From NCBI GenBank assembly GCA_964354495.1, contig CAYHAA010000003.1, positions 70,507 through 102,506 of the forward strand: 32,000 nt of DNA, given 5' to 3'. Both the position numbers and the translations under genes were made by a program. A model generated the notes under the pieces. It made no database searches and was not told the DNA's origin. It saw nothing but the letters and a program-made list of their open reading frames with translations. This DNA is from an uncultured archaeon (lineage in GTDB: Archaea > Asgardarchaeota > Thorarchaeia > Thorarchaeales > Thorarchaeaceae). Of this stretch, positions 1,069 through 25,021 are shown in pieces. Positions within the stretch are counted from its first letter, which is position 1. Each line of letters opens with the position of its first letter.

Positions 1069-1100
1069 GAAGAATGTCTGGCCAGACGGGATTTGAACCC
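1069..1100 (-). repeat. tRNA 3'-end relic 1 (att-like remnant)
   Basis: Reverse complement of 1079-1100 is GGGTTCAAATCCCGTCTGGCCA (T-loop plus acceptor 3' strand; 18 of the first 21 nt match the tRNA at 6462-6482). Shares GAAGAATG flank with relic 2. Confidence 0.6.
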
Positions 1101-2029: not shown

Positions 2030-2467
2030 CTAAATATCCAATTTGACTTCGACATCCTGTTCATTATACCAGTCAATATCTTGTTGAATACGATAGGCGA
2101 CCTCTTTGTTTGTTTGCCATGCTCTATCTGTATAGATGAACTTGTTTCCGTAGCCATATTTCAGGAAAATCCGATTCTTGATGATCTCCAGTTTCTGATT
2201 GAATAAGTGCTCTGCTACATTGTAATCAAGTGACCATAAAGTATGATTGTTAACTATGGCAACATGCAATCTTGCTTTTTTCGGCTGACTCTTTGTTGGT
2301 TGTTTTGCTGTTAACGCTTTAAGTCTTCTCGCAGATGCTGTTTCTTTTTTTCGAGGTTTATGGGGTTTACTCACCTTTCGCCCTCCTAACCCAATAGGTG
2401 TGTCACTTTCTTTTAGATATTTCATCTCGGACTTGTAAGATAATGGGGCATACCCAATCTCATCCAA
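2030..2467 (-). CDS. Hypothetical protein (basic N-terminal half)
   Basis: 145-codon ORF starting 14 bp downstream of the AbiV-family stop, same strand; TTG start; no recognisable motif. Confidence 0.5.
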   Translation of the reverse strand: MDEIGYAPLSYKSEMKYLKESDTPIGLGGRKVSKPHKPRKKETASARRLKALTAKQPTKSQPKKARLHVAIVNNHTLWSLDYNVAEHLFNQKLEIIKNRIFLKYGYGNKFIYTDRAWQTNKEVAYRIQQDIDWYNEQDVEVKLDI

Positions 2468-2481
2468 ACTCAGAAGTCAGA

Positions 2482-3243
2482 TTAATCCTTCCTTCTCTCT
2501 TTCTCGAACAATTCGAATCTTTCATCACTGATATAGGCTCTCGCTAAGGATGAAATGATCTTCCCAACGACGCCATATTTTTCCATCCTCCTATCAAGAT
2601 CCTCCAGATCATTCACCTCATCTTTTTGAACCTGTCTGAGTGAATGAGCTATCTCTTTCAGTTCGCTCTTCGCACTTTCTCTCTCCTGTTCTGGAATTTT
2701 ATCAACTTGGGATAGTATCCTGACAACTTCCTTGACCGAGTCTAATTGAGTTCTAAGTAATTGCTGTGCAAATTTCACAGAGGTCTTGTTCATTGCCGAT
2801 GGAAACCACATTGGACTTCGGAAGGCATCAACATAGAACCCGTCATTCTTCATCTGTTCTAGTTTTTCTGTAATCGCAAAAGTTGTTCCCTCTTGAAGCT
2901 CTTTTCTTGAAGGCATACCTATCTCTTTTCTTTCTTTCTCAGATAGTGCATCAATTATCGCTTCTAGTGAGATTCTTAATTCCAAAGCGAAAGTCTGTTT
3001 CCAGAAATGGGAAGTCAACTGTTTTTGTAGCAGTATCAAATCAGCTTTGGCAAAGAATCCATCAAAAATCGGATGATATTTCGTCAGTTGATAGGCTTTC
3101 ATTGCTTCTTCATATCCCAAAATTGCCAAACTAACGGCAGAAGCAAAACTTCCTTTCTTTTCCAATGTCTCTGAATCCTTTAGAAGTCTTTGAGCATTAG
3201 TATATGTGCGCTGAATGGCTTCTTGGATATCTTTCTGATTCAT
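2482..3243 (-). CDS. AbiV-family abortive infection protein (HEPN-related fold)
   Basis: N-terminal signature NAQRLLKDSETL..KG.FASAVSLAILGYEEAMKA, central H.WKQ and KNDGFYVD; AGGAGGT RBS upstream. Confidence 0.75.
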   Translation of the reverse strand: MNQKDIQEAIQRTYTNAQRLLKDSETLEKKGSFASAVSLAILGYEEAMKAYQLTKYHPIFDGFFAKADLILLQKQLTSHFWKQTFALELRISLEAIIDALSEKERKEIGMPSRKELQEGTTFAITEKLEQMKNDGFYVDAFRSPMWFPSAMNKTSVKFAQQLLRTQLDSVKEVVRILSQVDKIPEQERESAKSELKEIAHSLRQVQKDEVNDLEDLDRRMEKYGVVGKIISSLARAYISDERFELFEKERRKD

Positions 3244-3250
3244 CGTGCTG

Positions 3251-3257
3251 ACCTCCT
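3251..3257 (-). promoter_or_regulatory. Shine-Dalgarno site AGGAGGT of the AbiV-family gene
   Basis: ACCTCCT on + strand, 7 nt upstream of the ATG at 3243. Confidence 0.7.
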
Positions 3258-3355
3258 ACCTTCGTGATTTCCTGGCTAAGAATCACCGAGTGGTTTCTTT
3301 TTATAACCAAATACCATAACCAACTCATAAAATTGTAGGCTTTGAGGGTGAAGTA

Positions 3356-4372
3356 TTGACGAGGTCTAATTCAGTGAGTTCTGCGATTAAGAGAAGGGTT
3401 AGGGAGAGGAAAATTCGGAAACTAGCACGTATGGATACAAGAATCGATATTTCGCTTGACGATTTCTACAAGTATCAACAAAGTAAGATGTTGCGGGTTT
3501 TCGAAATATCTAGACATGAGAAACCTGATTCAAGTCTGGATATGGTTAGAAGTCTTAGATACATACAAAATCTGGTACAGATTCTACCAATGTGTGCCGA
3601 GGATCCTGAAACTCTTTTCAATATATTTTCCGTTACGATACTCCCAAGTGCCCGAATGACAGATTCCCTGAATATGCTTGAGGACTCAATTGTACTTGCG
3701 CTAACAGGACGCTATTCAGCAGCTCATACGTTATTACGTTTAGCTTTCGAAAGCCTCATTGTGGGAGGATTCTATCATGTAGTTGCCTATAATCAAACTA
3801 AGATGATACCTCAAATCAGAACTTTCAATGGGTGGGGCAACTATCCAAAACCGTTTGGAGAAATGGTTGAGAATATTCTGGAAAATCTCACTCCAAAAGA
3901 AAGAAGATTCACTTCCTTTATGCTAGAAAGCAAGATTGAGGAAGTCTTTCGAAACCATCAACCAAAACTAATTCCGCCTAGTTTCTCACTTATGCTATTT
4001 CAAGTCTGTGAATTCTATCCTCTGATAACTCCGAAGTATAAGAAATTCGTTCAAGATTTATACAGTGACCTGTCAACATATGTTCATACGATGAAAGATG
4101 CATCGTATGAAATAGGAAATTGGAAATTGGGCGTAGTATTTTCAGCCGAAAAACTCCAAGTCTTTCAATCGACATTTCTCACTGCACTGGATATGATTAG
4201 TTATCTGTATAATGTCATAATGGCGGCTAGCTATTCCTTTCCTGATGTTGTCTTGCATACTATTGATTTTATGGACAGGTTCAAGGTGGAAGGAGAGAGT
4301 CTGAGATTAACTAATTTCATTATTACTGCTCTTTGCAATCTCACTTCAGAACATAGTGAATCAGAGAATTAA
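3356..4372 (+). CDS. HEPN-like protein (DUF5677/Cthe_2314-like helical pattern)
   Basis: 338 aa (alternative ATG at 3431); LALTGRYSAAHTLLRLAFES helix and C-terminal LYSDLSTYVH motif typical of this HEPN group. Confidence 0.6.
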   Translation: MTRSNSVSSAIKRRVRERKIRKLARMDTRIDISLDDFYKYQQSKMLRVFEISRHEKPDSSLDMVRSLRYIQNLVQILPMCAEDPETLFNIFSVTILPSARMTDSLNMLEDSIVLALTGRYSAAHTLLRLAFESLIVGGFYHVVAYNQTKMIPQIRTFNGWGNYPKPFGEMVENILENLTPKERRFTSFMLESKIEEVFRNHQPKLIPPSFSLMLFQVCEFYPLITPKYKKFVQDLYSDLSTYVHTMKDASYEIGNWKLGVVFSAEKLQVFQSTFLTALDMISYLYNVIMAASYSFPDVVLHTIDFMDRFKVEGESLRLTNFIITALCNLTSEHSESEN

Positions 4373-4600
4373 GAATAACGTACCTATGCTCTAGAGGAAT
4401 TTACTCCGGAACATCCGTGTAATCAGAGCAGCGTAATAAAGAGAGAAGCAGGAGAAGTTGGATGAGTACACTGGCACAGAATACCCCTGGTGATGTAGGG
4501 AAGTTGTGTCTCCCTCGCATCAGGGATGAGAAGTTCATTGACCTTAGGAAGAAGTAAGAGGTTATTGACTAGTGGATAATTCTGGTACAGACACATGTGC

Positions 4601-4747
4601 ATGACACACACTTATCACTGTGGTGGCTCTATGAATGTTCACTACGAGCAGCGTAGAAAGGAGGGTGGTGAACCCAGATTCCTTCCAGTGGGATACAAGT
4701 GCAACAAGTGTGGAGAAGTCATCTACGATGAGAGTACTGGGTCATGA
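4601..4747 (+). CDS. Small Zn-ribbon-like protein, 48 aa (absent from the ORF track)
   Basis: Manual translation MTHTYHCGGSMNVHYEQRRKEGGEPRFLPVGYKCNKCGEVIYDESTGS*; HCGG and CNKCG knuckles. Confidence 0.55.
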   Translation: MTHTYHCGGSMNVHYEQRRKEGGEPRFLPVGYKCNKCGEVIYDESTGS

Positions 4748-4820
4748 TCTCCTTCGATCCTAATTTCCTTTGGTTTAGCTCGAGCTGTGGAATGTTCAGT
4801 TTTCCAAATGATAGCAAAAC

Positions 4821-6077
4821 TCACTCACGAAGGGGAGAATCTGGCCAGCCTCCAGCATTCCACATGGTTGTTATGACGGGATGAAGAAGAACTGCTATGT
4901 TGTCGTCATAGTCTTGGAGCAGGACCTCCGGAAATAGTAGACTAGCTTGAACGATGCCTTCGAAAGGAAGTGTGTCACTCCTGTATGAAGTGATAGCTTC
5001 TCCGGTTCCAATACGATATCCAAGTTTACAGCCCTTTACTCTTAACATACTAATCATGATGAGTATAGGGGGGTTCACTCCAATAGTTTGCAGTAGCTTG
5101 AGATAGCTCGGGATGTATTGAAGAACTAATTCTTCAATATCCTCTCCAATGATGATTGTTTCCTTAAGGTATCTCAACACCCGTAATGCTTCAATACTAC
5201 CATTTCGAAAGAACTGCGTGTATGCATTGGCAATGTGCCTATTGCCGATGAACGTTCCTGGGCTTCCTCCCAAACTCCATCGAAGATATCCATCGAGGTT
5301 GTAGAGATAGGTAGAACCTCCCAGCCTCATTGGCTCAAGTAATTCTTCTCTGGAAACCACTTTTTCAAGTTCAAAGGATTGGGCAGGGGTGAATGCATCT
5401 AGAGGCACGAGGTGAACGACAATCAACGGTCCATCATCAATGAGTAGTGGTGCTCTGTCCTCCAAGATAGCCTCTATCCGTTCTGCCCTAAAATCTCTAA
5501 TCTTGTCCACGATAGATTCAGAGGCCAAGAATGCTCTTCGCAGATCGTGAACATCAAGCTGATATTTCCCTCTCGAGTCTCTTGAATAGAATTTGTCATG
5601 GCTGCTAAACGTGACTCTATGAGGAGCCGCCCAGCTCCTCGGGATTCTAATGACAATTGCAAATCCTGTTGAACTGAGCCTTACTTCTCCAATCTCTATA
5701 TTATGAATCCGAGGACTGATACCATCTCGTATCTTCTGTTCAAGCTGCAAGATGACTGCATCGGGATTGGTAAGGATTAAGGGAGTAAGACTCACAGGAA
5801 TACCTTTGTTCTCATTCATCCCAAAGACCAGATGCCCTCCAGAAGCATTTGCAAAGGATGACACATCGCTCAGGAGCTCTATCGATCCTGGTCTGTCGTT
5901 GCTATGCAGCTCTTTCTTGTAATCAATCAACTTTGTTTCTGAGTCTTGATGCTCGATCAGCTCCAAGAGGTCTCCCTCTGTTATTTCATTAATTGGCCTG
6001 TGACGAATATGCATACTACCTTGCTCCATTCTTTGTTTTTCTATCTTACATTGAAACATAAAGAAGCCCGAATGCAT
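4821..6077 (-). CDS. Schlafen/AlbA_2-domain protein with uncharacterised C-terminal domain (likely start ATG 6014)
   Basis: ETKLIDYKKEL...ELLSDVSSFANASGGHLVFGMNE is the AlbA_2 core; later IVIRIPRS..APH...FYSR. Confidence 0.85.
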   Translation of the reverse strand: MHSGFFMFQCKIEKQRMEQGSMHIRHRPINEITEGDLLELIEHQDSETKLIDYKKELHSNDRPGSIELLSDVSSFANASGGHLVFGMNENKGIPVSLTPLILTNPDAVILQLEQKIRDGISPRIHNIEIGEVRLSSTGFAIVIRIPRSWAAPHRVTFSSHDKFYSRDSRGKYQLDVHDLRRAFLASESIVDKIRDFRAERIEAILEDRAPLLIDDGPLIVVHLVPLDAFTPAQSFELEKVVSREELLEPMRLGGSTYLYNLDGYLRWSLGGSPGTFIGNRHIANAYTQFFRNGSIEALRVLRYLKETIIIGEDIEELVLQYIPSYLKLLQTIGVNPPILIMISMLRVKGCKLGYRIGTGEAITSYRSDTLPFEGIVQASLLFPEVLLQDYDDNIAVLLHPVITTMWNAGGWPDSPLRE

Positions 6078-6118
6078 ATAATTCTAGCAGCCAGTGGTTT
6101 GAAGGTGCACAACCTCAA

Positions 6119-6325
6119 GTGACACAAAATTCCATTTTGAATAAGCTTCGAACTCCTGGATTTGATATCGAAGAAGTTTCACACATTCCGGGCAAAGTAG
6201 AAGACGCACTCGTAATAGAGAGTGGTGAACTTGTACGTTGGTTCTATCTAATCCCCCAAGAAGAACTTTCAAAAGAATGTGAAAAGGAAATGAATGAACT
6301 TGCAAAGAAACTCAGTGATGGATAG
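6119..6325 (+). CDS. Hypothetical small protein or gene fragment
   Basis: 68-codon ORF with GTG start filling the gap before the tRNA; no motif. Confidence 0.35.
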   Translation: MTQNSILNKLRTPGFDIEEVSHIPGKVEDALVIESGELVRWFYLIPQEELSKECEKEMNELAKKLSDG

Positions 6326-6379: not shown

Positions 6380-6487
6380 GGGCCGATTGCTCAGCCAGGT
6401 AGAGCGGCAGGCTCTTAACTTGTAGAGCATGGGAATTCTCCCTTGTTCGAGGAGTGGTCGCGGGTTCAAATCCCGCTCGGCCCGCCA
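6380..6487 (+). tRNA. tRNA-Lys(CTT) with a 31-nt intron at a non-canonical position (variable-loop boundary) and encoded CCA
   Basis: Acceptor GGGCCGA/TCGGCCC, D-arm GCTC/GAGC, anticodon stem GCAGG/CTTGT with loop CT-CTT-AA (anticodon 6414-6416), T-arm GCGGG-TTCAAAT-CCCGC, G73 and CCA; 31 extra nt between 6424 and 6456. Confidence 0.9.
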
Positions 6488-6530
6488 TCTTCATTTTGAT
6501 AGACCAAATCATCCTGCTGAGCCACCAGCC

Positions 6531-6600
6531 GATCATTGTTAGTTGGAACAGCGTTGACACAAAGGTCAAGCTGACCGTCCAGGAACGGCACTGGACACTT
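6531..6600 (-). ncRNA. Putative omega/reRNA scaffold 3' part overlapping the tnpB stop
   Basis: Hairpins GTCCAG/CTGGAC (6577-6596) and GGTCA/TGACC (6564-6576), alternative TTGAC/GTCAA pairing, GTCAA at 6558-6554; position matches known TnpB reRNA overlap; boundaries uncertain. Confidence 0.4.
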
Positions 6601-8704
6601 TCTTTTGGACATGAATGATGTTACGTGATGCGTTCACATCTGCATGGAAATGCTCATCACATCTCTCACAGTAGAAGAATTCACCTGCTCTCATTTCAGA
6701 GATTGAGAGTTCATCGGAAACTCGGATACCAATCTCACCGCACTGATGACAGGTCTGAGATGTCAAGGCAGGGTTCACAGCCCACACACCTCCATAACTA
6801 TGACCGAGACTTCGTCGCATGTAACGTACTGTTTCAAAGATCTTCGAAAAGAGATTGGCTGAAAGGCTCCATGACAGATTACTAAGGCCAGACGGAGCAG
6901 AGTAGTTCTTCAAGTTCTCAAAGACGACAGTCTTGACTTCATGCTCCTCACAGAACCAGACCAATCGTGATGCAACCTGTCGGGCGATTTCTCTGTCAAT
7001 CCTTCGAATCCTATCCCATACCGCATCATACTCTCTTCGTTTCTTGAGCAAATGAGAAGGATGACCCAAGTTAGGATGTTTCTTATCCCAGTTATTTTGC
7101 ATCCTGACTATTTTGGACTGTAGCCACTTTGTATCCTCGAGTAGGAGAATGCGCTTCTTCAGTAGCTGATCCATCTCTATGAGTTCATCGACATATGTTT
7201 CACCTTTCTGTACAGATACTGCAATTGGTACCCGGAGGCCCCTGTCAGCACCTGCCCGCCGGTGATAGTTTGTCTTGCCAAGCGCAGTTTCTATGACCTC
7301 GTAAGTGGGCGGTAGGAACGGAAGATAGAGAACAGCCTTGTGCCCACGAAGTACAAGCTGTGGAGGCTTGCATCTTCTAGAATTCCTTAGTTCTCCCCTT
7401 CGCACTTCTAGTAGTCTTAACTCCTCGGGATCTACGTCTTTCCTGCATTTGCGTAGTCTGAGTTGATGGGTGATATGGTGATATTCAATGGTGTTCATTA
7501 GTTGTTGATGCATATCACTGAACTTGGCAGCTCGAAACCGGAGTTGCTTTGCTCGCTGGTGTTGTCCATCTCTCTCAGCTCTGTCTGCCTTCTGCAAGTC
7601 CTTCTGTACTGCTCTTGGGAACCAGTTGAGGAACCGAAAGCCAAGTGTCTTGGTCCTGTAGGGAGAATCAGTGTGCCTTGCTCCTTCAATGGGTTCAGGA
7701 GGTTTCAAGAACAATAGAATCTCGTTCTTACGATCTGTGTCCCTTTCGATACTGTACCAGTACCCCTGGCCAATATCGCTCTCGGACCCAGCTGAGAAGT
7801 CCTCTGAGAAGGAGAGCATCTTTGGCACTGTGAACGGGTACCCATCTGTAGACCACTTAGCCAAAGTAGTCTTGACAGTAGGCACGACTAGACCAGGATT
7901 CTGTACGAGTAGTTCCTTTACTCGCACCCGCTGGCTCTTCCTGAATCGAAGAGGTTCTCCCTGTTCAGTGAGAATGACCTCATCCAATAGGCGACGAAGT
8001 TGTTTGAGGACGGACACAACGTAGTAGTAGTTCTTGCCATTGGTCCTGATTGCTGAACATTCCCTTCGGATTGTTGTTATCAGCGAAGAGGAGATGTATT
8101 TGTTCTTCAGGAGTCTCAGGACCAGCGTTTCATCTCCAAGGAGAACTGAAAGAGATGTAGCCATCAGCTGTCTTCTCCTCCAGTCAGACAGAATCACTCG
8201 TGCCGCCTCTTCCAAGGCATTACGGTACATTCTCTCAAAGCAGATGCTCTCAATCTCCTCGTTGTCCCGGTATCTGAGATATCCGATTTTCTTCAAAAGG
8301 TCGTACCCTTTTCCTCGGTGTTCAGATAGCTGTCTGCCAACTGACTCAGCCCGCTCATCGGACTCATAGACCCTTTCAAGGACCATGTTCACGAGTCGGA
8401 CATAGACTGTAAAATGCTCTCCAAGACGGGACACATCGATATCCCGGATTTTTCGACCTGTTTGTGATTCCCCCTGAGCTCTGGCTATTGTACTGAGCAT
8501 AGCCTCAGGTCCTCTTCCCTTTCCCTGCCGTTGTACGGTTCGTTCCACAGAGTTGAGAGTGAATGACTCGGTGAGATACCTAAGCCCAGTCTTTGGCGTT
8601 CCCGATGAACAGGATATAAATTTGTCATCCATTGTCTGTTGCTGTTCAGTCAGGGACTGAGTCTGCTCCCGGGGACGACGCCGGGCTCTTGATTCCTTAA
8701 TCAT
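6566..8704 (-). CDS. tnpB: Oversized TnpB/Cas12-like RNA-guided endonuclease (RuvC plus Zn finger), 712 aa
   Basis: RuvC-I RAGAD487RG, RuvC-II VVFE596NL, Zn finger CHQC...CERC, RuvC-III HAD689VNASRNI; GGTGA RBS at 8708-8712. Confidence 0.88.
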   Translation of the reverse strand: MIKESRARRRPREQTQSLTEQQQTMDDKFISCSSGTPKTGLRYLTESFTLNSVERTVQRQGKGRGPEAMLSTIARAQGESQTGRKIRDIDVSRLGEHFTVYVRLVNMVLERVYESDERAESVGRQLSEHRGKGYDLLKKIGYLRYRDNEEIESICFERMYRNALEEAARVILSDWRRRQLMATSLSVLLGDETLVLRLLKNKYISSSLITTIRRECSAIRTNGKNYYYVVSVLKQLRRLLDEVILTEQGEPLRFRKSQRVRVKELLVQNPGLVVPTVKTTLAKWSTDGYPFTVPKMLSFSEDFSAGSESDIGQGYWYSIERDTDRKNEILLFLKPPEPIEGARHTDSPYRTKTLGFRFLNWFPRAVQKDLQKADRAERDGQHQRAKQLRFRAAKFSDMHQQLMNTIEYHHITHQLRLRKCRKDVDPEELRLLEVRRGELRNSRRCKPPQLVLRGHKAVLYLPFLPPTYEVIETALGKTNYHRRAGADRGLRVPIAVSVQKGETYVDELIEMDQLLKKRILLLEDTKWLQSKIVRMQNNWDKKHPNLGHPSHLLKKRREYDAVWDRIRRIDREIARQVASRLVWFCEEHEVKTVVFENLKNYSAPSGLSNLSWSLSANLFSKIFETVRYMRRSLGHSYGGVWAVNPALTSQTCHQCGEIGIRVSDELSISEMRAGEFFYCERCDEHFHADVNASRNIIHVQKKVSSAVPGRSA

Positions 8705-8734
8705 CGGTCACCACTCTCAATTCTAGGTACAGAA

Positions 8735-8758
8735 TTATATCCTCATATTAGGATATAA
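8735..8758. promoter_or_regulatory. 24-bp near-perfect palindrome overlapping the tnpB TATA box (operator candidate)
   Basis: TTATATCCT-C-ATAT-T-AGGATATAA has one mismatched pair; minus strand reads TTTATAT over 8760-8754. Confidence 0.55.
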
Positions 8759-8852
8759 ATTTACCAAGATTACTATGAAGAATAGAACAGAGTGGTTTTA
8801 AAGTGGCACATTCTGGCTCATGAGGCGAAATAGAAAATAGACACTACTCAAT

Positions 8853-8868
8853 AAAATTCTTATATATA
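8853..8868 (+). promoter_or_regulatory. BRE/TATA-like promoter of the giant gene
   Basis: AAAA-TTC-TTATATATA about 26-34 nt upstream of ATG 8894, the usual archaeal spacing for a short leader. Confidence 0.55.
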
Positions 8869-8893
8869 ATAAGCAACATTCAATCTCATACCA

Positions 8894-11800
8894 ATGAAAA
8901 CAGCGAGAGTCCCCGAGAATCCCGGGAAGGTTCTTACCAAGGCCCTGCAACTGGGTCTTACATCCACAGCATACCTGACCAGATCCAGAGTGACCAAGGC
9001 AACAAGACACTTCTACTGGGGAGGGAAAAGGCGCAAGGGAATAAGACAGATGATGAAGGATGCCCTCTCAGACTACCAGAGATCTGTCAACGAGAGAAGA
9101 CCCAACGCAAAGCACCTTCAGAGATATGAGAACAACATTCGCCGCAACCACAACAAGGTGGTCCTGAACACATCGGTTGCCTATGGGAACACCGAGGAGA
9201 AGAGAAGAAGACGGGATGAGAACAGGAAGTACATCAACACTCTCGCTGACTATTTCGGAGCAAAGATAAGGAATACCGGTGCAACGAAGTTCCAATTCCA
9301 AGTACCAGCTAAGCTGCGCACCGCGGGCAGAGCTGTCGAGCGGTACTATCCGGGTAACTCACGGATCCCTGAGTATGTTCCCCGTCACGTTGCTCCTGAA
9401 CTAGACTTCGTGGATATGATTCGAAGTCATGGCATCGAGCTTGCCCGCCAGTGTATGAAGTACTCAGTTCCGCTGAGAGATGCAAAACGATACTTGGACA
9501 GACTCATTGATGAACTGATTCCCTATCTTGAGCATGTCTATACAGAGGGTCGGGCGGGAAAGAAGGGATTCATTCATGGCGGAGTGAGGGTGCTCCGCAA
9601 GATTACGGCTGAGATGAGGACTCTATATGGAGGAGTCAACGGTCACCCGCAATCAATCACAGCTGAGATCTCAGAAGAGATCGATAAGAGCGCAGAGAGG
9701 AGTATGGCACTTGATGATTCTCAATTAACAGAAACAAATCGAGTAGAAACGGTCGTTGACGATGAAGAGGATAGGTCTGAGCCGGAAACGGTCGAGGAAG
9801 AAGACCTTGACACTTTCTTTAATCGCCTCTTGGACCATTGCGACATTGTTACTAATCCACATTGGAAAGTGCATGTGGAGCGAGTGAGGTCACTAGTTGA
9901 GCAGGGAATTCTGACACGTAAAGATGCAGAGTATTTCCTGAGCCTCATTCTCGAAGATAGCCGGAAGATGGGATCAGCCTTTCATGATTTCATTGCCAAT
10001 TCGGAGTTCACAGTCCGCCCATTCTCGCTTCTTGGCCCTATCAAGCATGGTGATGAGATGGTCACCGAAAACACGGAGTTATTATTCACCTGTGAAACCA
10101 GTGTGGCGGATGGTCGAGGGAGAATCGACATTCTTGTCTTTCGAAGAAAGCATCTAGCGCGGGTCGACGAATCACGACCCGTTGCTATCTGGGAACCGTG
10201 CATCCTCATCGAGATAAAGACGAAGAACTTCTACGGACTTGACCTCTATGCAATAACCACCAAGTCGAAAGACATGAGGAAGAGAGTCGTTGAACCAGTT
10301 CTAGAGAAGAGAAAATCCGAGAGACCTGAATGGGAAGCAATCGTCAGTTCCACTCCAACTGCATATGAAAAGAAACAGCTAGAGTCCTATGAGAGAGCTG
10401 TACTCTCAGACTATAGAAAGTATGTGAGAAACGATTCGGGTCCACCAGAGAAACTGATGAAAGGAGTACTTGTTGTTGACTTAGCGGAGAACTGGGAAGT
10501 CCTACGAGCCAACATCAAAGATCTAATTCTTCAGGCGCACCATTCTTCCCAAGAGATGACTCTTCCAAAGAGGCAACACTTCTATCCAACCTTGAAGAGC
10601 AAAGAAACCAGAATGGGACTTGTTCTCTTCAGTGATTATGAAGATAGAAGCACCGCACCAGTCGAGAATGTTGTAGAGTTCAATCCGTTCTCACATCCCG
10701 GAGGTCGCGATGACAACCGAGAGTTCATCCTGTATCTTGGTGTGTCAGACAAAGGCTCTCCTTCCATTTCGGCAGCAGAGATTGCAGCTAGGTGGCACGG
10801 ATTGAAGTTCATCCATGAGAGAACCAAAGGAAAGAACAGAGATATTCTTTGGCTGGATTTCACTGGTGAATACAGGGATGCTAGACTCAGAAAAAAGAGC
10901 TTGCGACTCACTCTTCAATCGAAAAGCATTCAGCACCTGGTGAGAGAAAGAATCATTTTTGTTGACATGTCGGGAGAGATGTCCTCGTACCTTCATGAGA
11001 GAGTGTCCATCGAGGCTCCGGGCCAAAAGGTCCGGGAGAGTTTCCATGGAAAGAGAAGACCATTCATCGTTGTAACGGGCTTCGATAAGTTGAGAGAGAG
11101 CATTCCTAGAGAGAAGATGTCCCTTCTTGATGAATGCATAGTCTGGTTAATTGAACTCGTTCCACCACACTCATCAGTACTGTGGTTCGATAAGCCCGTA
11201 CCGACCAGCTGGACAAGTCAGGAGTATGACACTCGAGGCATAGCACCCTTTTACACAAGCAGCCCATGGAAACGCGTTGTAGATGAGATTGTTTACAATG
11301 TACCAATGGCTCCCAGGAGGTGGGGGTCCTATGTTCCTGCAGAAGATGACATCAGATGGATTGTGATTGAGAGCAAATTCAGTCTTGACTATGGTACAGA
11401 ACTGGTTCCACCTCTATACATGTGGGGAGAACGGTTCAGACCCGATGGTAATCGTGAGGACAATATTGACAGGCAACAGGTATTCTATCTTAGATCTACT
11501 TACTCGTCAACAAGACAACGCAATCTAAGAAAATATAGCAAAGAGGATTTCAACAGCGTATTGGAGCTCATCCCGCATCTCAATAGATTCTATGAGAATC
11601 CAGATTTGAATGACATTGAGAGAGTGTATGACAGTGAGGAAGTAAAGATGCTGAGGGAGGAGCTCTCAGAGATTCCATCGAGTCCAGCCCCAATCCTTTC
11701 GAGAGTGGTCTTCACACCCAATCAGTCCTTGACTTCAGTTGAGAAAGACAGTCGAGTGAAATTGCTCATGCCGCTATCCATGATTAACGCTGCCAGAGAA

Positions 11801-14296
11801 TATCGACAGACCAGACTCTTGAATGAGCCCAAAAGGGAAACGACAAGGCCGCCTCATTTGGGATTACTCAGGTTTCATGGTGCTGACGTGTTCACGGTTG
11901 TGAGAAATGAACTTGGTGGATTAAGACAGGTTGCGAAAGTCATAGAGAAACGTCATGGGGGGAACAAGGAGTGGAGGGAATTCCTTGATTCATTGAGGCT
12001 GCTTCTAAAGCCGGAAACAATAGGTGACTATAATCAACATACTGTTCTGAACATGCTGCGGTCGGTTCATGTCTTCCTTGAAACCCACGAGTTGAGCAGG
12101 GGTGTTTGGGAAGCCATCAAACCACGCAGGACATGGATTCCGGATGGACTGTCGGAAGAACAGCAGACGAACCTGAGGATTCTCCTAGACAGAGATCCAG
12201 ATCTGTTGCTTTTGGTAGGCAACCATCTCTTTCTTCTTCTTCTAGTATCGCTGCATGAAGCCGAAGCCATGGACCTGTCAACAGGGTTCATTGAAAGACT
12301 CTGGAACTACCTTCTTCCCTTTCAAATGGCAGGGATAGGATTTGAGCCAGAGTATCATTCACAGCATAATACTGGCAAATCATTCCTGCACAGAACTAGA
12401 CTCATCACAAGACTGGCATCTTGGGCAAGGAGTCTAAAACTACTCCAAGCAAATCAGAACGTGAATGAGATTCTCTTTGGGCGCGCGTACCTTGTTGGAA
12501 ACGATAGAGGTGGATTGCCCTCGCACATCTTACTATCTTTTCAGACAACCCTAGGAAGTCATGAAATGAGCATGGCCTTCTTGAAAGCGCCATCGGAGGT
12601 CAAGGGCTCAGTTCATGAAGTCCTTGGGGGTCTGTGCCAAAAAAGACCATTCTGGGGCACGAGTGACCTATTGATTCTCAGAAAGCTAGCAGAGAGTGTG
12701 AGCCCCAGTGTTGGTACTGATATCATGATTGCTTCTCAAAACGGAACTCGTGGCCTTTGGACCTGTGAAAATAGTTCAGACAAATGGATTCCTATTGGAG
12801 GATTCGACTACTATTCGCGGAAACGCGAGATGGCCACACTTCTAATGTCAGCTGTTCTTCGTGAGGACGCGACTCTTCAAGAAGTGCCATGCGAGAGCAT
12901 CAGAACGACGCCTCAGAATCTGAAAGAGTCTATCGACATTGGTCTGCAGCTCATCTCAGCGGCATTCCGGATGTGCATTCCTGTGAGATGTCACGTGTCC
13001 TTGGACTACAATGAGAAGATGTTCAGAATTTCATTTGTGAAGGCTAAGAGGAAGAAAGAAGTGGGAGAACTTCTGATCAAGAAGACCGCAGATATACTTG
13101 AGATTCTGAGAAGACCAGACATTTCGTGTGAACCTGTCGTTGTTGAGGGGAAACAATGCATCTGGAACAGATTCGACGATATCGAGTACGACGAAGATGT
13201 CAAAATCCTGCGACCTTATGTAATTCGAAACAACCCCTTCAAGGTTTATTCGCTAGCATTGCCACAGAATGCAGAGACACTTTGTTCAATAGAAAGAGGG
13301 CGTGTTTTGAGAACGAAGATTCTGCATGACCCGTACGTATGTCCTTTGAGAAGCGTGCGTCTGGAAAATCTCATTCAGCAGCCCATCAAGTCGGCATCTG
13401 TTATTGATTATCTGAGGAACATGGATGGTCATCCTGGGCAACCTGACCCATTGTTCAATCAGTCTATACATAGACATGGAACTTGCTGGAGATTATCATT
13501 CGACTCTGATGATGATCTTCCTGCACAGATCGAGGAACTTGATAAGGTGAAGTTCGGAGGTCCTGCTCTTGCAACCTTCTTAGAGACAGGTGTTGTGTTC
13601 TATTCAACCCCCAACGGAGATTGGGTTTCTCACGAGATACAAGTTCCTGAATCGAGAGATTTGCCCAAGGAGTTTAGGGAATCCATACACCTCATGAGAT
13701 GGAGAAAGGACAACGCTATATATCCTGGCTTCTACCTACTTGACGGCTGGATTCCCGAGATTCAGATCTACAAGGACAGGGTTGATTTCAGACTCGTATC
13801 GAAACTCACACTTCAAGAGAAGACACACTCGATCTTTGAATCTAATGCTGAAATGCTAGAAAAAGAAAGACTGCGATTACTGCTGAAGAGAGGAATGAGT
13901 AGGGTCATCGAACTAGGAGGCTTCTCCGGGAATAGTACTATGAAGCAGTTAGCCAACAGCGAGATTGCAGGTCAACTCGCTCATATTGATAATGAGAGTG
14001 GCATAGAGTTGCAGTATGATTCGGTTGGGGTTGCTGAAGATAGGGTTCGAGAGAAAGTCATCGTGGCAAATTTCGTTACTCATGATGATGAGTATGTGAC
14101 TATTCAGGTAACACAACAGATATTGGTGTACAAGGACTGGACTGCAATGGCAGGGGGCGTTGACTTCGATACAGTAGAAGTAGAAATCAACGATAGGCTA
14201 CAGGGGTATAACGTCAATGATGAACACATTAACAGAATCGCAGAAAGAGCGAGAGAATTGTTAGAAGAAATGGGTGTGGTGTTCTTTGAACCATGA
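8894..14296 (+). CDS. Giant 1800-aa protein with Cas4/RecB-like PD-(D/E)xK nuclease domain and a degenerate RecA-like region
   Basis: G360SAFH, GRID412IL, IE440IK442T, Q495LESY499; then GVSDKGS (~616), ILWLD655FTGEY, FIVVTGFD (~724); basic N-terminus and acidic linker. Confidence 0.8.
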   Translation: MKTARVPENPGKVLTKALQLGLTSTAYLTRSRVTKATRHFYWGGKRRKGIRQMMKDALSDYQRSVNERRPNAKHLQRYENNIRRNHNKVVLNTSVAYGNTEEKRRRRDENRKYINTLADYFGAKIRNTGATKFQFQVPAKLRTAGRAVERYYPGNSRIPEYVPRHVAPELDFVDMIRSHGIELARQCMKYSVPLRDAKRYLDRLIDELIPYLEHVYTEGRAGKKGFIHGGVRVLRKITAEMRTLYGGVNGHPQSITAEISEEIDKSAERSMALDDSQLTETNRVETVVDDEEDRSEPETVEEEDLDTFFNRLLDHCDIVTNPHWKVHVERVRSLVEQGILTRKDAEYFLSLILEDSRKMGSAFHDFIANSEFTVRPFSLLGPIKHGDEMVTENTELLFTCETSVADGRGRIDILVFRRKHLARVDESRPVAIWEPCILIEIKTKNFYGLDLYAITTKSKDMRKRVVEPVLEKRKSERPEWEAIVSSTPTAYEKKQLESYERAVLSDYRKYVRNDSGPPEKLMKGVLVVDLAENWEVLRANIKDLILQAHHSSQEMTLPKRQHFYPTLKSKETRMGLVLFSDYEDRSTAPVENVVEFNPFSHPGGRDDNREFILYLGVSDKGSPSISAAEIAARWHGLKFIHERTKGKNRDILWLDFTGEYRDARLRKKSLRLTLQSKSIQHLVRERIIFVDMSGEMSSYLHERVSIEAPGQKVRESFHGKRRPFIVVTGFDKLRESIPREKMSLLDECIVWLIELVPPHSSVLWFDKPVPTSWTSQEYDTRGIAPFYTSSPWKRVVDEIVYNVPMAPRRWGSYVPAEDDIRWIVIESKFSLDYGTELVPPLYMWGERFRPDGNREDNIDRQQVFYLRSTYSSTRQRNLRKYSKEDFNSVLELIPHLNRFYENPDLNDIERVYDSEEVKMLREELSEIPSSPAPILSRVVFTPNQSLTSVEKDSRVKLLMPLSMINAAREYRQTRLLNEPKRETTRPPHLGLLRFHGADVFTVVRNELGGLRQVAKVIEKRHGGNKEWREFLDSLRLLLKPETIGDYNQHTVLNMLRSVHVFLETHELSRGVWEAIKPRRTWIPDGLSEEQQTNLRILLDRDPDLLLLVGNHLFLLLLVSLHEAEAMDLSTGFIERLWNYLLPFQMAGIGFEPEYHSQHNTGKSFLHRTRLITRLASWARSLKLLQANQNVNEILFGRAYLVGNDRGGLPSHILLSFQTTLGSHEMSMAFLKAPSEVKGSVHEVLGGLCQKRPFWGTSDLLILRKLAESVSPSVGTDIMIASQNGTRGLWTCENSSDKWIPIGGFDYYSRKREMATLLMSAVLREDATLQEVPCESIRTTPQNLKESIDIGLQLISAAFRMCIPVRCHVSLDYNEKMFRISFVKAKRKKEVGELLIKKTADILEILRRPDISCEPVVVEGKQCIWNRFDDIEYDEDVKILRPYVIRNNPFKVYSLALPQNAETLCSIERGRVLRTKILHDPYVCPLRSVRLENLIQQPIKSASVIDYLRNMDGHPGQPDPLFNQSIHRHGTCWRLSFDSDDDLPAQIEELDKVKFGGPALATFLETGVVFYSTPNGDWVSHEIQVPESRDLPKEFRESIHLMRWRKDNAIYPGFYLLDGWIPEIQIYKDRVDFRLVSKLTLQEKTHSIFESNAEMLEKERLRLLLKRGMSRVIELGGFSGNSTMKQLANSEIAGQLAHIDNESGIELQYDSVGVAEDRVREKVIVANFVTHDDEYVTIQVTQQILVYKDWTAMAGGVDFDTVEVEINDRLQGYNVNDEHINRIAERARELLEEMGVVFFEP

Positions 14297-14311
14297 AACT
14301 ATTGCATGGCC

Positions 14312-14410
14312 CCACCAGCCCACAGACCGCCCCTTGCCTGTTCTGCGTTCATAGAGATTGCGGTGTTACAGAGGCCCATGGCTGTCACAAGGCGTATAGT
14401 AGAAGCACAT
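14312..14410 (+). repeat. Dispersed direct repeat copy C1
   Basis: 52-nt core 14317-14368 AGCCCACAGACCGCCCCTTGCCTGTTCTGCGTTCATAGAGATTGCGGTGTTA; distal TGTCACAAG...GAAGCA shared with C4. Confidence 0.9.
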
Positions 14411-18532: not shown

Positions 18533-18600
18533 AGCCCACAGACCGCCCCTTGCCTGTTTTGAACTCATAGAGACTGTGGTATTCGCGGGTTGGTATCTGT
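18533..18600 (+). repeat. Dispersed direct repeat copy C2
   Basis: 44/52 identity to C1 core (18533-18584); TATCTGT shared with C4. Confidence 0.88.
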
Positions 18601-24482: not shown

Positions 24483-24574
24483 CCACTAGCCCACAGACGG
24501 CCCCTTGCCTGTTCTGCGTTTGTAGAGATTGCGGTGTTAACGAGAATTCCAGATGTCAAAATGCATCATGAAGC
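24483..24574 (+). repeat. Dispersed direct repeat copy C3
   Basis: 49/52 identity to C1 core (24488-24539); distal TGTCA and GAAGC retained. Confidence 0.9.
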
Positions 24575-24914: not shown

Positions 24915-24925
24915 TCACTTCCTTC

Positions 24926-25021
24926 ACTAGCCGACCGACCGCTCCTTGCCCGTTGTGAGTCCATAGAGATTGCGGTGTTAACGAGGCCGCTATCTGTCAC
25001 AAGCCATATGGTGAAGCAAAT
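24926..25021 (+). repeat. Dispersed direct repeat copy C4
   Basis: 45/52 identity to C1 core (24929-24980); GAGGCC...CTGTCACAAG...GAAGCA shared with C1. Confidence 0.9.

Follow-up and report, generated by a model that had tools for sequence, protein, structure and literature searches.

Introduction

Two Asgard-linked groups of TnpB nucleases, Cas1H-Asgard-1 and Cas1H-Asgard-2, have been described as associated with aCas1 (Altae-Tran et al., 2023; PMC10691335), a name used in the same paper for the Cas1 homologues of Makarova et al. (2020), which have diverged extremely. Its authors view aCas1 as a likely transposase, since the loci are flanked by repeats, and they report that, downstream of the aCas1-associated tnpB, a conserved T and GTTCACTCA enclose a hypervariable segment, for which they raise a spacer-like reading (PMC10691335). 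The subject of the present study is an Asgard Cas1-linked TnpB locus, a kind already published from computation only, which lies in a 32,000-nucleotide stretch of DNA from an uncultured archaeon of the Thorarchaeaceae (GenBank assembly GCA_964354495.1, contig CAYHAA010000003.1, positions 70,507 to 102,506; hereafter the window, meaning this whole stretch). It comprises a tnpB-like gene, whose 712-residue product is called P0001 here, and a divergently oriented gene for a giant partner protein, P0121.

With a probability of roughly three in four, we consider P0001 to be an RNA-guided nuclease belonging to a Thorarchaeota-specific family of mobile elements, most of which carry an aCas1 giant and some of which carry a recombinase of IS607 type. 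Like the published aCas1-associated TnpB proteins, the P0001 family is found only in Asgard archaea, stands beside a divergent Cas1-like protein (by fold) and has an intact RuvC site. Repeat flanks are shared in the window and three other loci only, and the published variable segment with GTTCACTCA is present in a sister family of about 570 residues encoded by the same genome, the motif being absent downstream of tnpB in the P0001 family itself. Compared by published description and not by tree placement, the P0001 family may be the second published aCas1 group or a further one.

An enlarged nuclease of TnpB/Cas12f type

The gene and the modelled domains of its product are laid out as follows.

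6566..8704, minus strand: tnpB-like gene, 712 residues (P0001); open reading frame (ORF), Pfam, NCBIfam, AlphaFold2 (AF2) model
P0001 residues 44-49: WED strand; 88-287: helical REC lobe; 300-359: WED strands (model)
P0001 residues 362-442: extra helices; from about 449: RuvC (D487, E596, D689); 640-700: TNB zinc finger (model)

The split RuvC D-E-D triad is found in the motifs GADRG (D487), VVFENL (E596) and HADVNAS (D689), and a CxxC...CxxC zinc finger made of Cys652/655 and Cys679/682 is placed between RuvC-II and RuvC-III. An earlier note on the window had described these seven residues as intact, and they proved to be invariant across 64 full-length ORFs of the family, one alignment gap excepted. 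Pfam recognizes Cas12f1-like_TNB (PF07282) at residues 640-696 (E 1e-11), together with a weak OrfB_IS605 match, and the best PADLOC matches are Cas12u3 and Cas12f models, covering residues 477-700. The NCBIfam profile guided_TnpB aligns residues 352-697 with its positions 79-387 at 58 bits, below the cut-off of 100 bits, so that about 270 N-terminal residues of P0001 lie outside the canonical profile.

In the AF2 model, for which 29 relatives were used (predicted local distance difference test [pLDDT] 78, predicted template modelling score [pTM] 0.71), residues 41-702 match AsCas12f (8dzj) with Z 16.7 and a root mean square deviation (rmsd) of 4.3 over 377 of its 416 residues, and ISDra2 TnpB (8h1j) is matched with Z 14.1 and rmsd 4.7 over 350 of 362 residues; Fanzor2 (Z 14.6) is one among many structural matches. 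As modelled, P0001 has the full WED-REC-RuvC-TNB fold of TnpB and Cas12f with about 290 extra, mainly helical residues, in agreement with the roughly 300 that had been noted at the N-terminus. The core is predicted to be enlarged by a helical lobe of about 200 residues (88-287), inserted in the wedge domain at the REC position, and by a second helical insertion at residues 362-442. Compared with Cas12f (type V-F) and ISDra2 TnpB, P0001 thus matches the whole core structurally and has the same RuvC triad and TNB zinc finger; it differs in that sequence similarity is limited to RuvC and TNB, in the expansion of the REC lobe by the extra residues, and in having neither a CRISPR (clustered regularly interspaced short palindromic repeats) array nor a tracrRNA locus. 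On sequence and model, P0001 is a genuine, enlarged, predicted RNA-guided nuclease of TnpB/Cas12f type. The intact and invariant triad sets P0001 apart from nuclease-dead TnpB derivatives (TldR-type regulators), and the hosts, all of which are archaeal metagenome-assembled genomes (MAGs), set it apart from Fanzors.

More than 120 homologues of 690-730 residues can be aligned with P0001 from end to end, those with a name all coming from Thorarchaeota/Promethearchaeota MAGs, and dozens of positions within residues 44-480 are invariant among them, which disposes of the possibility that the N-terminal part is a fusion or an assembly artefact. In a profile search of 1.84 billion unlabelled representatives the family forms a tight island: past E ~1e-24, matches cover only positions ~440-700, relatives outside the family have RuvC and TNB alone in common with it, and no sequence relative outside the family was found for the first ~440 residues. 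The N-terminal half is therefore specific to the family at the sequence level.

Species-representative genomes hold 80 loci of the family, all in Thorarchaeota/Promethearchaeota and up to about 10 per MAG, many of them at contig ends, and such breaks are typical of repeats. The genome to which the window belongs (3.3 Mb, completeness 97.7%) encodes paralogues of P0001 with 46%, 42% and 38% identity and five C-terminal fragments. Solo tnpB units of 2.3 kb, 92-93% identical to one another, are found in differing contexts.

A giant partner protein with a Cas1-like fold

Head to head with tnpB lies the gene of P0121.

8894..14296, plus strand: giant partner gene, 1800 residues (P0121); structure model, conserved motifs
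8705..8893, no strand: shared divergent promoter region, in which a TATA-like box and the motif CTTGGTAAATTTATAT, both conserved among relatives, precede the tnpB start by about 60 nt
P0121 residues 1-232: Cas1-like helical catalytic domain, followed by a Cas4/RecB-like PD-(D/E)xK domain; ~603-890: RecA/KaiC-like domain; about 900 C-terminal residues without assignment

The conserved N-terminal coding sequence that is found, divergently oriented, upstream of tnpB in most loci belongs to P0121 homologues. Among the 67 informative loci of the family, defined as those with at least 1 kb of upstream sequence, a giant is paired with tnpB in 46, being adjacent and divergent in 41 and co-directional in five, and none is present in 21; the identities of the giants and of the TnpB proteins are only moderately correlated (Spearman 0.59). 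In the co-directional loci (L015, L028, L045, L053 and L090), a gene for a Rad51/KaiC-like ATPase (Pfam Rad51, E 5e-21) lies between giant and tnpB, as do one or two genes of no known family.

Sequence searches with P0121 gave nothing, whether against Pfam, NCBIfam, PADLOC, a PDB sequence profile or by ESM Atlas feature searches. The statement of the earlier note that the window holds no cas1, Y1 transposase or serine transposase stands as far as Pfam detection goes (no Cas1, no Y1 transposase and no serine recombinase in the window; no Pfam Cas1 and no Y1 TnpA in the 97.7%-complete genome), but not as regards the gene adjacent to tnpB, which is Cas1-like by fold. No CRISPR array was found in the window or the loci, nor was a CRISPR-like array found in the assembly by k-mer scan.

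Residues 1-1180 of P0121 were modelled with 35 relatives (pLDDT 85, pTM 0.84). In an all-against-all structural search, residues 1-232 matched nine Cas1 and casposase entries with Z 9.8-13.4 and no other family, the best being 4n06 (Z 13.4, rmsd 3.9, 195 residues aligned), followed by 8flj (Z 13.2), 7kft (Z 12.3) and the casposase 6opm (Z 11.1). Residues ~603-890 matched ATPases of the KaiC, RadA, RAD51-paralogue and DnaB type (Z 10-12), in agreement with Foldseek and the ESM Atlas. The invariant residues of the giant superfamily include E79, H165, D171, D174 and R177, the last three within an LDFxDMIR motif; the LDxxDxxR pattern resembles LDxxExFK of Cas1, and the series as a whole resembles the set E...H...LDxxExFK of canonical Cas1 (alignments A5 and A6). 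A Cas4/RecB nuclease motif set is present as well (G360/H364, D412, E440-x-K442 and Q495xxxY499). The N-terminal domain of P0121 is, by its model, of Cas1-like fold.

Two other kinds of large protein were considered and set aside. The large Cas1-containing ORFs of another Asgard family (L112-L114; G041, G058), of 1325-1367 residues, carry a weak Pfam Cas1 match (E 1e-6 to 3e-10) at the C-terminus and have no BLAST similarity to P0001 or P0121. Aloposons, with giant genes at tRNA sites in Heimdallarchaeum, encode proteins of 3000-6000 residues, and TnpB is unmentioned in their description (PMC8813620).

The right end and a putative omegaRNA

Three adjoining features mark the 3′ side of tnpB.

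6578..6595, minus strand: RNA hairpin TCCAG-8 nt loop-CTGGA within the last tnpB codons; RNAalifold, covariation
6529..6576, minus strand: right end of the element, with the second helix of GGTC and a partner of GTTCC type, two degenerate ~10-nt direct repeats and terminal ACAATGATCGG; similarity stops here elsewhere
6510..6530, minus strand: guide-like flank GGCTGGTGGCTCAGCAGG..., equal to nt 2-20 of the interrupted tRNA-Lys; right-end boundary, tRNA comparison

Directly 3′ of the tnpB stop codon, about 32 nt are conserved in 73 loci, with unrelated sequence beyond. The family consensus of this right end has two direct repeats of ~10 nt, TGTCCAAGTT and TGTCCAACTT, ahead of ACAATGAACGG, and in the window the motif reads ...GTTCCAACTAACAATGATCGG, ending at 6529. 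The last 300 nt of 42 sequences were aligned (alignment A4) and analyzed with RNAalifold, 500 shuffles and slid registers serving as controls. The closing pair of the hairpin is UA in 21 sequences and CG in 21; at the inner pair, 34 sequences have GC and six have CG, the swap being accompanied by matching amino-acid changes; all cells are paired, and none of the 500 shuffles reached the observed values. GGAC, located immediately 5′ of the stop codon, pairs with GTCC of the second direct repeat to form a second helix. Taken together, the two helices have 97.6% of cells paired and double (compensatory) changes at six of nine pairs, and no slid register came close. The hairpin is the best-supported piece of a putative omegaRNA-like scaffold, as judged from the aligned sequences.

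The 18 nt that follow the right end in the window (GGCTGGTGGCTCAGCAGG, 6530-6513) resemble the 5′ end of tRNA-Lys. By analogy with TnpB omegaRNAs, in which the scaffold overlaps the tnpB 3′ end and the flank provides the guide, the covarying RNA, the right end and the unrelated flanks have the layout expected of a putative omegaRNA with its candidate guide. Within the window's genome the guide-like flank has no other target, the only near matches being 16-mers with one or two mismatches in unrelated coding DNA. Co-variation of the guide-like flank of each locus with its own neighbouring tRNA was looked for and none was seen.

Insertion into a tRNA-Lys gene

The ends of the giant-tnpB unit can be placed by means of the following features.

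14312..14320, minus strand: left copy of a 9-bp direct repeat (CCACCAGCC on the plus strand), 15 nt past the giant stop codon
6522..6530, minus strand: right copy of the 9-bp direct repeat, equal to the first 9 nt of the guide-like flank
14313..14400, minus strand: tRNA-Lys promoter and first ~10 nt (the stub); repeat copies at 18533-18583, 24484-24571 and 24925-25012
6380..6486, plus strand: intact intron-bearing tRNA-Lys(CTT), converging on the tnpB 3′ end, with a match of ~14/19 to the guide-like flank

The left repeat copy is preceded by a sequence of about 55-88 nt that recurs at 18533, 24484 and 24925, and in genomes of another genus of the same family this promoter sequence runs into an intact, intron-bearing tRNA-Lys(CTT) gene. 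The uninterrupted gene of these related genomes is the empty site; this, together with the repeats, places the insertion of the ~7.8-kb giant-tnpB unit (6529-14311) after about nt 10 of tRNA-Lys, with a 9-bp duplication. Besides the promoter stub, no tRNA-like fragment was found beyond the giant. In two loci of genus g5 (L116 and L117), the uninterrupted tRNA-Lys(CTT) appears to contain two introns, of which the first follows the anticodon region and the second lies in the T-arm, and ARAGORN made no call.

Three further units that lack a recombinase (L059, L062 and L080) have locus-specific direct repeats of 8-9 bp, which start exactly at the right-end boundary and recur 44-117 nt past the giant stop codon. 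With the window this makes four of 22 loci, against ~0.1 expected by chance; in the other 18, no such repeat was found within 300 nt of the giant stop codon. Other members of the family (L020, L023, L029 and L051) adjoin tRNA-His or tRNA-Arg genes and show differing tRNA pieces after their right ends, namely an antisense 3′ end, a sense part from anticodon to T-arm, or a sense D-arm, which suggests that tRNA genes were entered more than once and at varying positions.

Serine recombinases and the architecture of whole elements

An IS607 TnpA-type protein of about 200 residues, with MerR-HTH and Resolvase domains (Pfam E 1e-17 to 1e-20), is encoded in 10 loci of the family, in six of them converging on the giant 3′ end and in four directly upstream of tnpB. 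The left end is marked by GACAAA(C/G)TTGGACAT, which inverts the right-end repeats and precedes the recombinase genes by about 60 nt; the solo tnpB unit in L027 has this motif upstream as well. When terminal inverted repeats were sought in giant-TnpB units, only 11 of 65 loci had an inverted copy of the right-end 12-mer upstream, and its place was inconsistent. The left end, the recombinase and the solo units indicate that the full element consists of left end, serine recombinase, giant (on the reverse strand), tnpB and right end, and that it often occurs in shortened form. In the window's genome, IS607-type serine recombinases are found next to paralogues of the P0001 gene; two copies, C22 and C24, are intact, the latter adjoining a decayed giant-tnpB pair.

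These loci share with IS607 the recombinase, the subterminal repeats of ~10 nt, a right end that finishes in GG, an omegaRNA-like structure overlapping the tnpB 3′ end, and solo tnpB units. They differ from IS607 in the size of the nuclease (712 residues for P0001 versus about 400) and in the Cas1-like protein of 1500-1900 residues that most copies of the family carry; the window copy differs further in being without recombinase and left end and in being flanked by the 9-bp repeat.

As to which enzyme would mobilize the giant-tnpB unit, the 8-9-bp repeats favour an integrase that makes staggered cuts, such as the Cas1-like domain, and the architecture of the ends favours a serine recombinase. 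That the aCas1 giant, and not the serine recombinase, might be the transposase of the unit, integrating it in a casposon-like manner with staggered cuts while TnpB served homing or retention only, is possible but doubtful. The four recombinase-less units with boundary repeats speak for it, as do the casposase-like fold with its invariant E, H, D and D, the insertion of the unit into or beside tRNA genes, and the published opinion on repeat-flanked aCas1 loci (PMC10691335); on the other side stand the lack of any shared left-end sequence or terminal inverted repeat in those same four units, the 18 loci without repeats, the occurrence of giants together with a serine recombinase inside elements with IS607-type ends, and the only moderate correlation between giant and TnpB identities. 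Casposons likewise carry a Cas1-type integrase fold within a mobile element, and type V-K CRISPR-associated transposons are likewise found at tRNA genes, the guide matching the tRNA gene in V-K homing; the P0001 element differs from both in having no PolB, no TnsB, TnsC or TniQ and no array, and its nuclease site is intact rather than dead.

The sister family and the link to published aCas1

Four further giant homologues, encoded in the same genome on contigs C31, C27, C6 and C17, are 25-37% identical to P0121, the N-terminal domain included, and each is divergently paired with a TnpB-like ORF of about 550-590 residues. These sister modules occupy the following positions.

C31:6342-11228
C27:7606-12694
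C6:13956-18080
C17:679-5793

Downstream of three of these sister TnpB ORFs, ...GAAGT is followed by 11-13 variable nt and then by GTTCACTCAC; the fourth has GTTTCACTCAC. The presence of the GTTCACTCA signature at sister loci with homologous giants ties the giants to the published aCas1. On this basis P0001 probably belongs to a family whose architecture has been described before, that of the aCas1-associated TnpB proteins (PMC10691335), a finding that the earlier note had named as one that would refute its proposal of a clade between TnpB and Cas12. Altogether, seven to eight giant-TnpB modules are present in the window's genome.

In a different view of the giant, its Cas1-like and Cas4-like parts would insert or exchange a short variable segment beside the putative omegaRNA scaffold and so write guides for a one-spacer adaptive system. 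Such domains do adjoin a predicted RNA-guided nuclease, the sister loci have their variable nucleotides between …GAAGT and GTTCACTCA, and the spacer-like reading comes from the authors of PMC10691335 themselves. In the P0001 family, however, nothing is conserved after the variable flank, the 'guide' of the window is just the interrupted tRNA gene, and no Cas2 and no repeat array were found in the window, so that we regard guide writing as very improbable.

Mobility of the family and age of the window copy

The position of the window copy in tRNA-Lys is common to relatives down to about 50% protein identity, and a near-identical second copy was not found in its own genome, where the closest paralogue is the one of 46%; the copy thus looks old and possibly immobile. 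Most likely it represents an old insertion at a hot spot in tRNA-Lys, one that is truncated and perhaps no longer moves.

The earlier note had proposed an enlarged, possibly domesticated clade. Enlargement with an intact catalytic site holds; a solitary or domesticated gene does not agree with a multi-copy family that includes decayed fragments, solo units, a conserved right end with unrelated flanks, a recombinase and inverted left end in 10 loci and giant pairing in 46 of 67. For the window copy taken singly, one may still ask whether the giant-TnpB module at tRNA-Lys has been retained by the host, its fixed guide and active nuclease serving the cell in CRISPR-less defence or genome maintenance. 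This would fit the position, syntenic in relatives whose protein identity ranges between 83% and ~50%, the conservation of the guide-like 18 nt where neighbouring intergenic bases are not conserved, the missing recombinase and left end, the lack of a recent paralogue, the retained active site, and the adjoining AbiV, HEPN-like and Schlafen/AlbA_2 genes. Yet the conserved flank may simply be a remnant of the tRNA gene, the guide is without a target in the genome, and elsewhere in the family there are copies whose flanks are entirely different, copies that carry a recombinase, and breaks at contig ends, besides fragments and solo units. Domestication of the window copy is accordingly unlikely, and the data can be explained without it.

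The reading as the RNA-guided nuclease of a mobile element family has several points against it besides the age of the window copy. The Cas1 likeness of the giant rests on the fold and one short motif, given that hhalign of the giant N-terminus against an alignment of canonical Asgard Cas1 returned a probability of 0.3%, and, according to the structural search tool itself, chance alone may give helical domains a Z of ~13. A TAM (transposon-associated motif) could not be derived, and the RNA evidence sought yielded a single sediment metatranscriptome contig of 167 nt, at 7558-7724, which is uninformative on the omegaRNA. As for transposition, the left-end motif was not found near the giant 3′ end in the window copy, and the complete C24 element shows no duplication. 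Repeats of 8-9 bp are not expected from transposition by a serine recombinase.

A possible mechanism

To the observed anatomy, fold, conservation, gene pairing, RNA covariation, insertion site and empty site, a mechanism may be added by analogy. The guide RNA would be cut from the tnpB transcript itself, the omegaRNA being transcribed and processed such that its scaffold would end with the covarying hairpin in the last codons, the second helix and the motif ACAATGAWCGG, and the next 16-20 nt of flanking DNA would act as the guide. In the window, where the unit is inserted within tRNA-Lys(CTT) after about nt 10, this guide would recognize uninterrupted alleles of the tRNA-Lys(CTT) gene. In analogy to TnpB of IS605 and IS607 elements, the nuclease, presumably with the help of a TAM, would cut such empty sites and thereby bring about re-copying or retention of the element. 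Mobilization would be the task of the serine recombinase or of aCas1, and the window copy would have lost the recombinase and the left end, or would never have had them.

Surroundings in the window

The four tRNA-Lys promoter stubs of the window bound unrelated gene blocks, which encode S8 peptidases, a nucleotidyltransferase and a solute-binding protein, as if a single tRNA-Lys site had received one insertion after another. A fragment resembling the 3′ end of a tRNA (T-arm and acceptor strand; 1076-1100, minus strand) lies between the genes of a nitronate monooxygenase and a methyltransferase and is inverted relative to the intact tRNA-Lys. Between this relic and the tRNA-Lys gene, a defence-type cluster (2030-6325) is placed, consisting of AbiV (HEPN), a DUF5677-like gene and a Schlafen/AlbA_2 protein, and more AT-rich than its surroundings.

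Implications

Type V CRISPR systems are believed to have arisen in two steps, TnpB growing into Cas12 and Cas1 being recruited. At the present locus, a protein of either kind is found head to head with the other in one mobile module of the archaeal lineage closest to eukaryotes, with an intact nuclease site and no array. What this locus adds to the published groups is a well-resolved anatomy, a candidate guide together with the natural target it would have, the empty site of related genomes, a map of the domains in the partner and the co-occurrence with a serine recombinase.

It offers handles for experiment as well: a defined end of the RNA scaffold, an 18-nt candidate guide, the 5′ end of tRNA-Lys as a natural target, for which relatives have the empty site, and 1180 residues of the partner protein that are well modelled. 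A nuclease of about 700 residues with a self-encoded putative guide may also be of interest for genome-editing work.

A further and improbable reading would make the giant, with its Cas1-like, Cas4-like and RecA-like domains, and the enlarged TnpB one functional unit, in which the Cas1-like domain would integrate either the element itself or guide-specifying segments beside the scaffold. If this were true, the giant-TnpB modules would connect, as a living link that does without an array, integrases of casposon type with CRISPR adaptation and with type V effectors.

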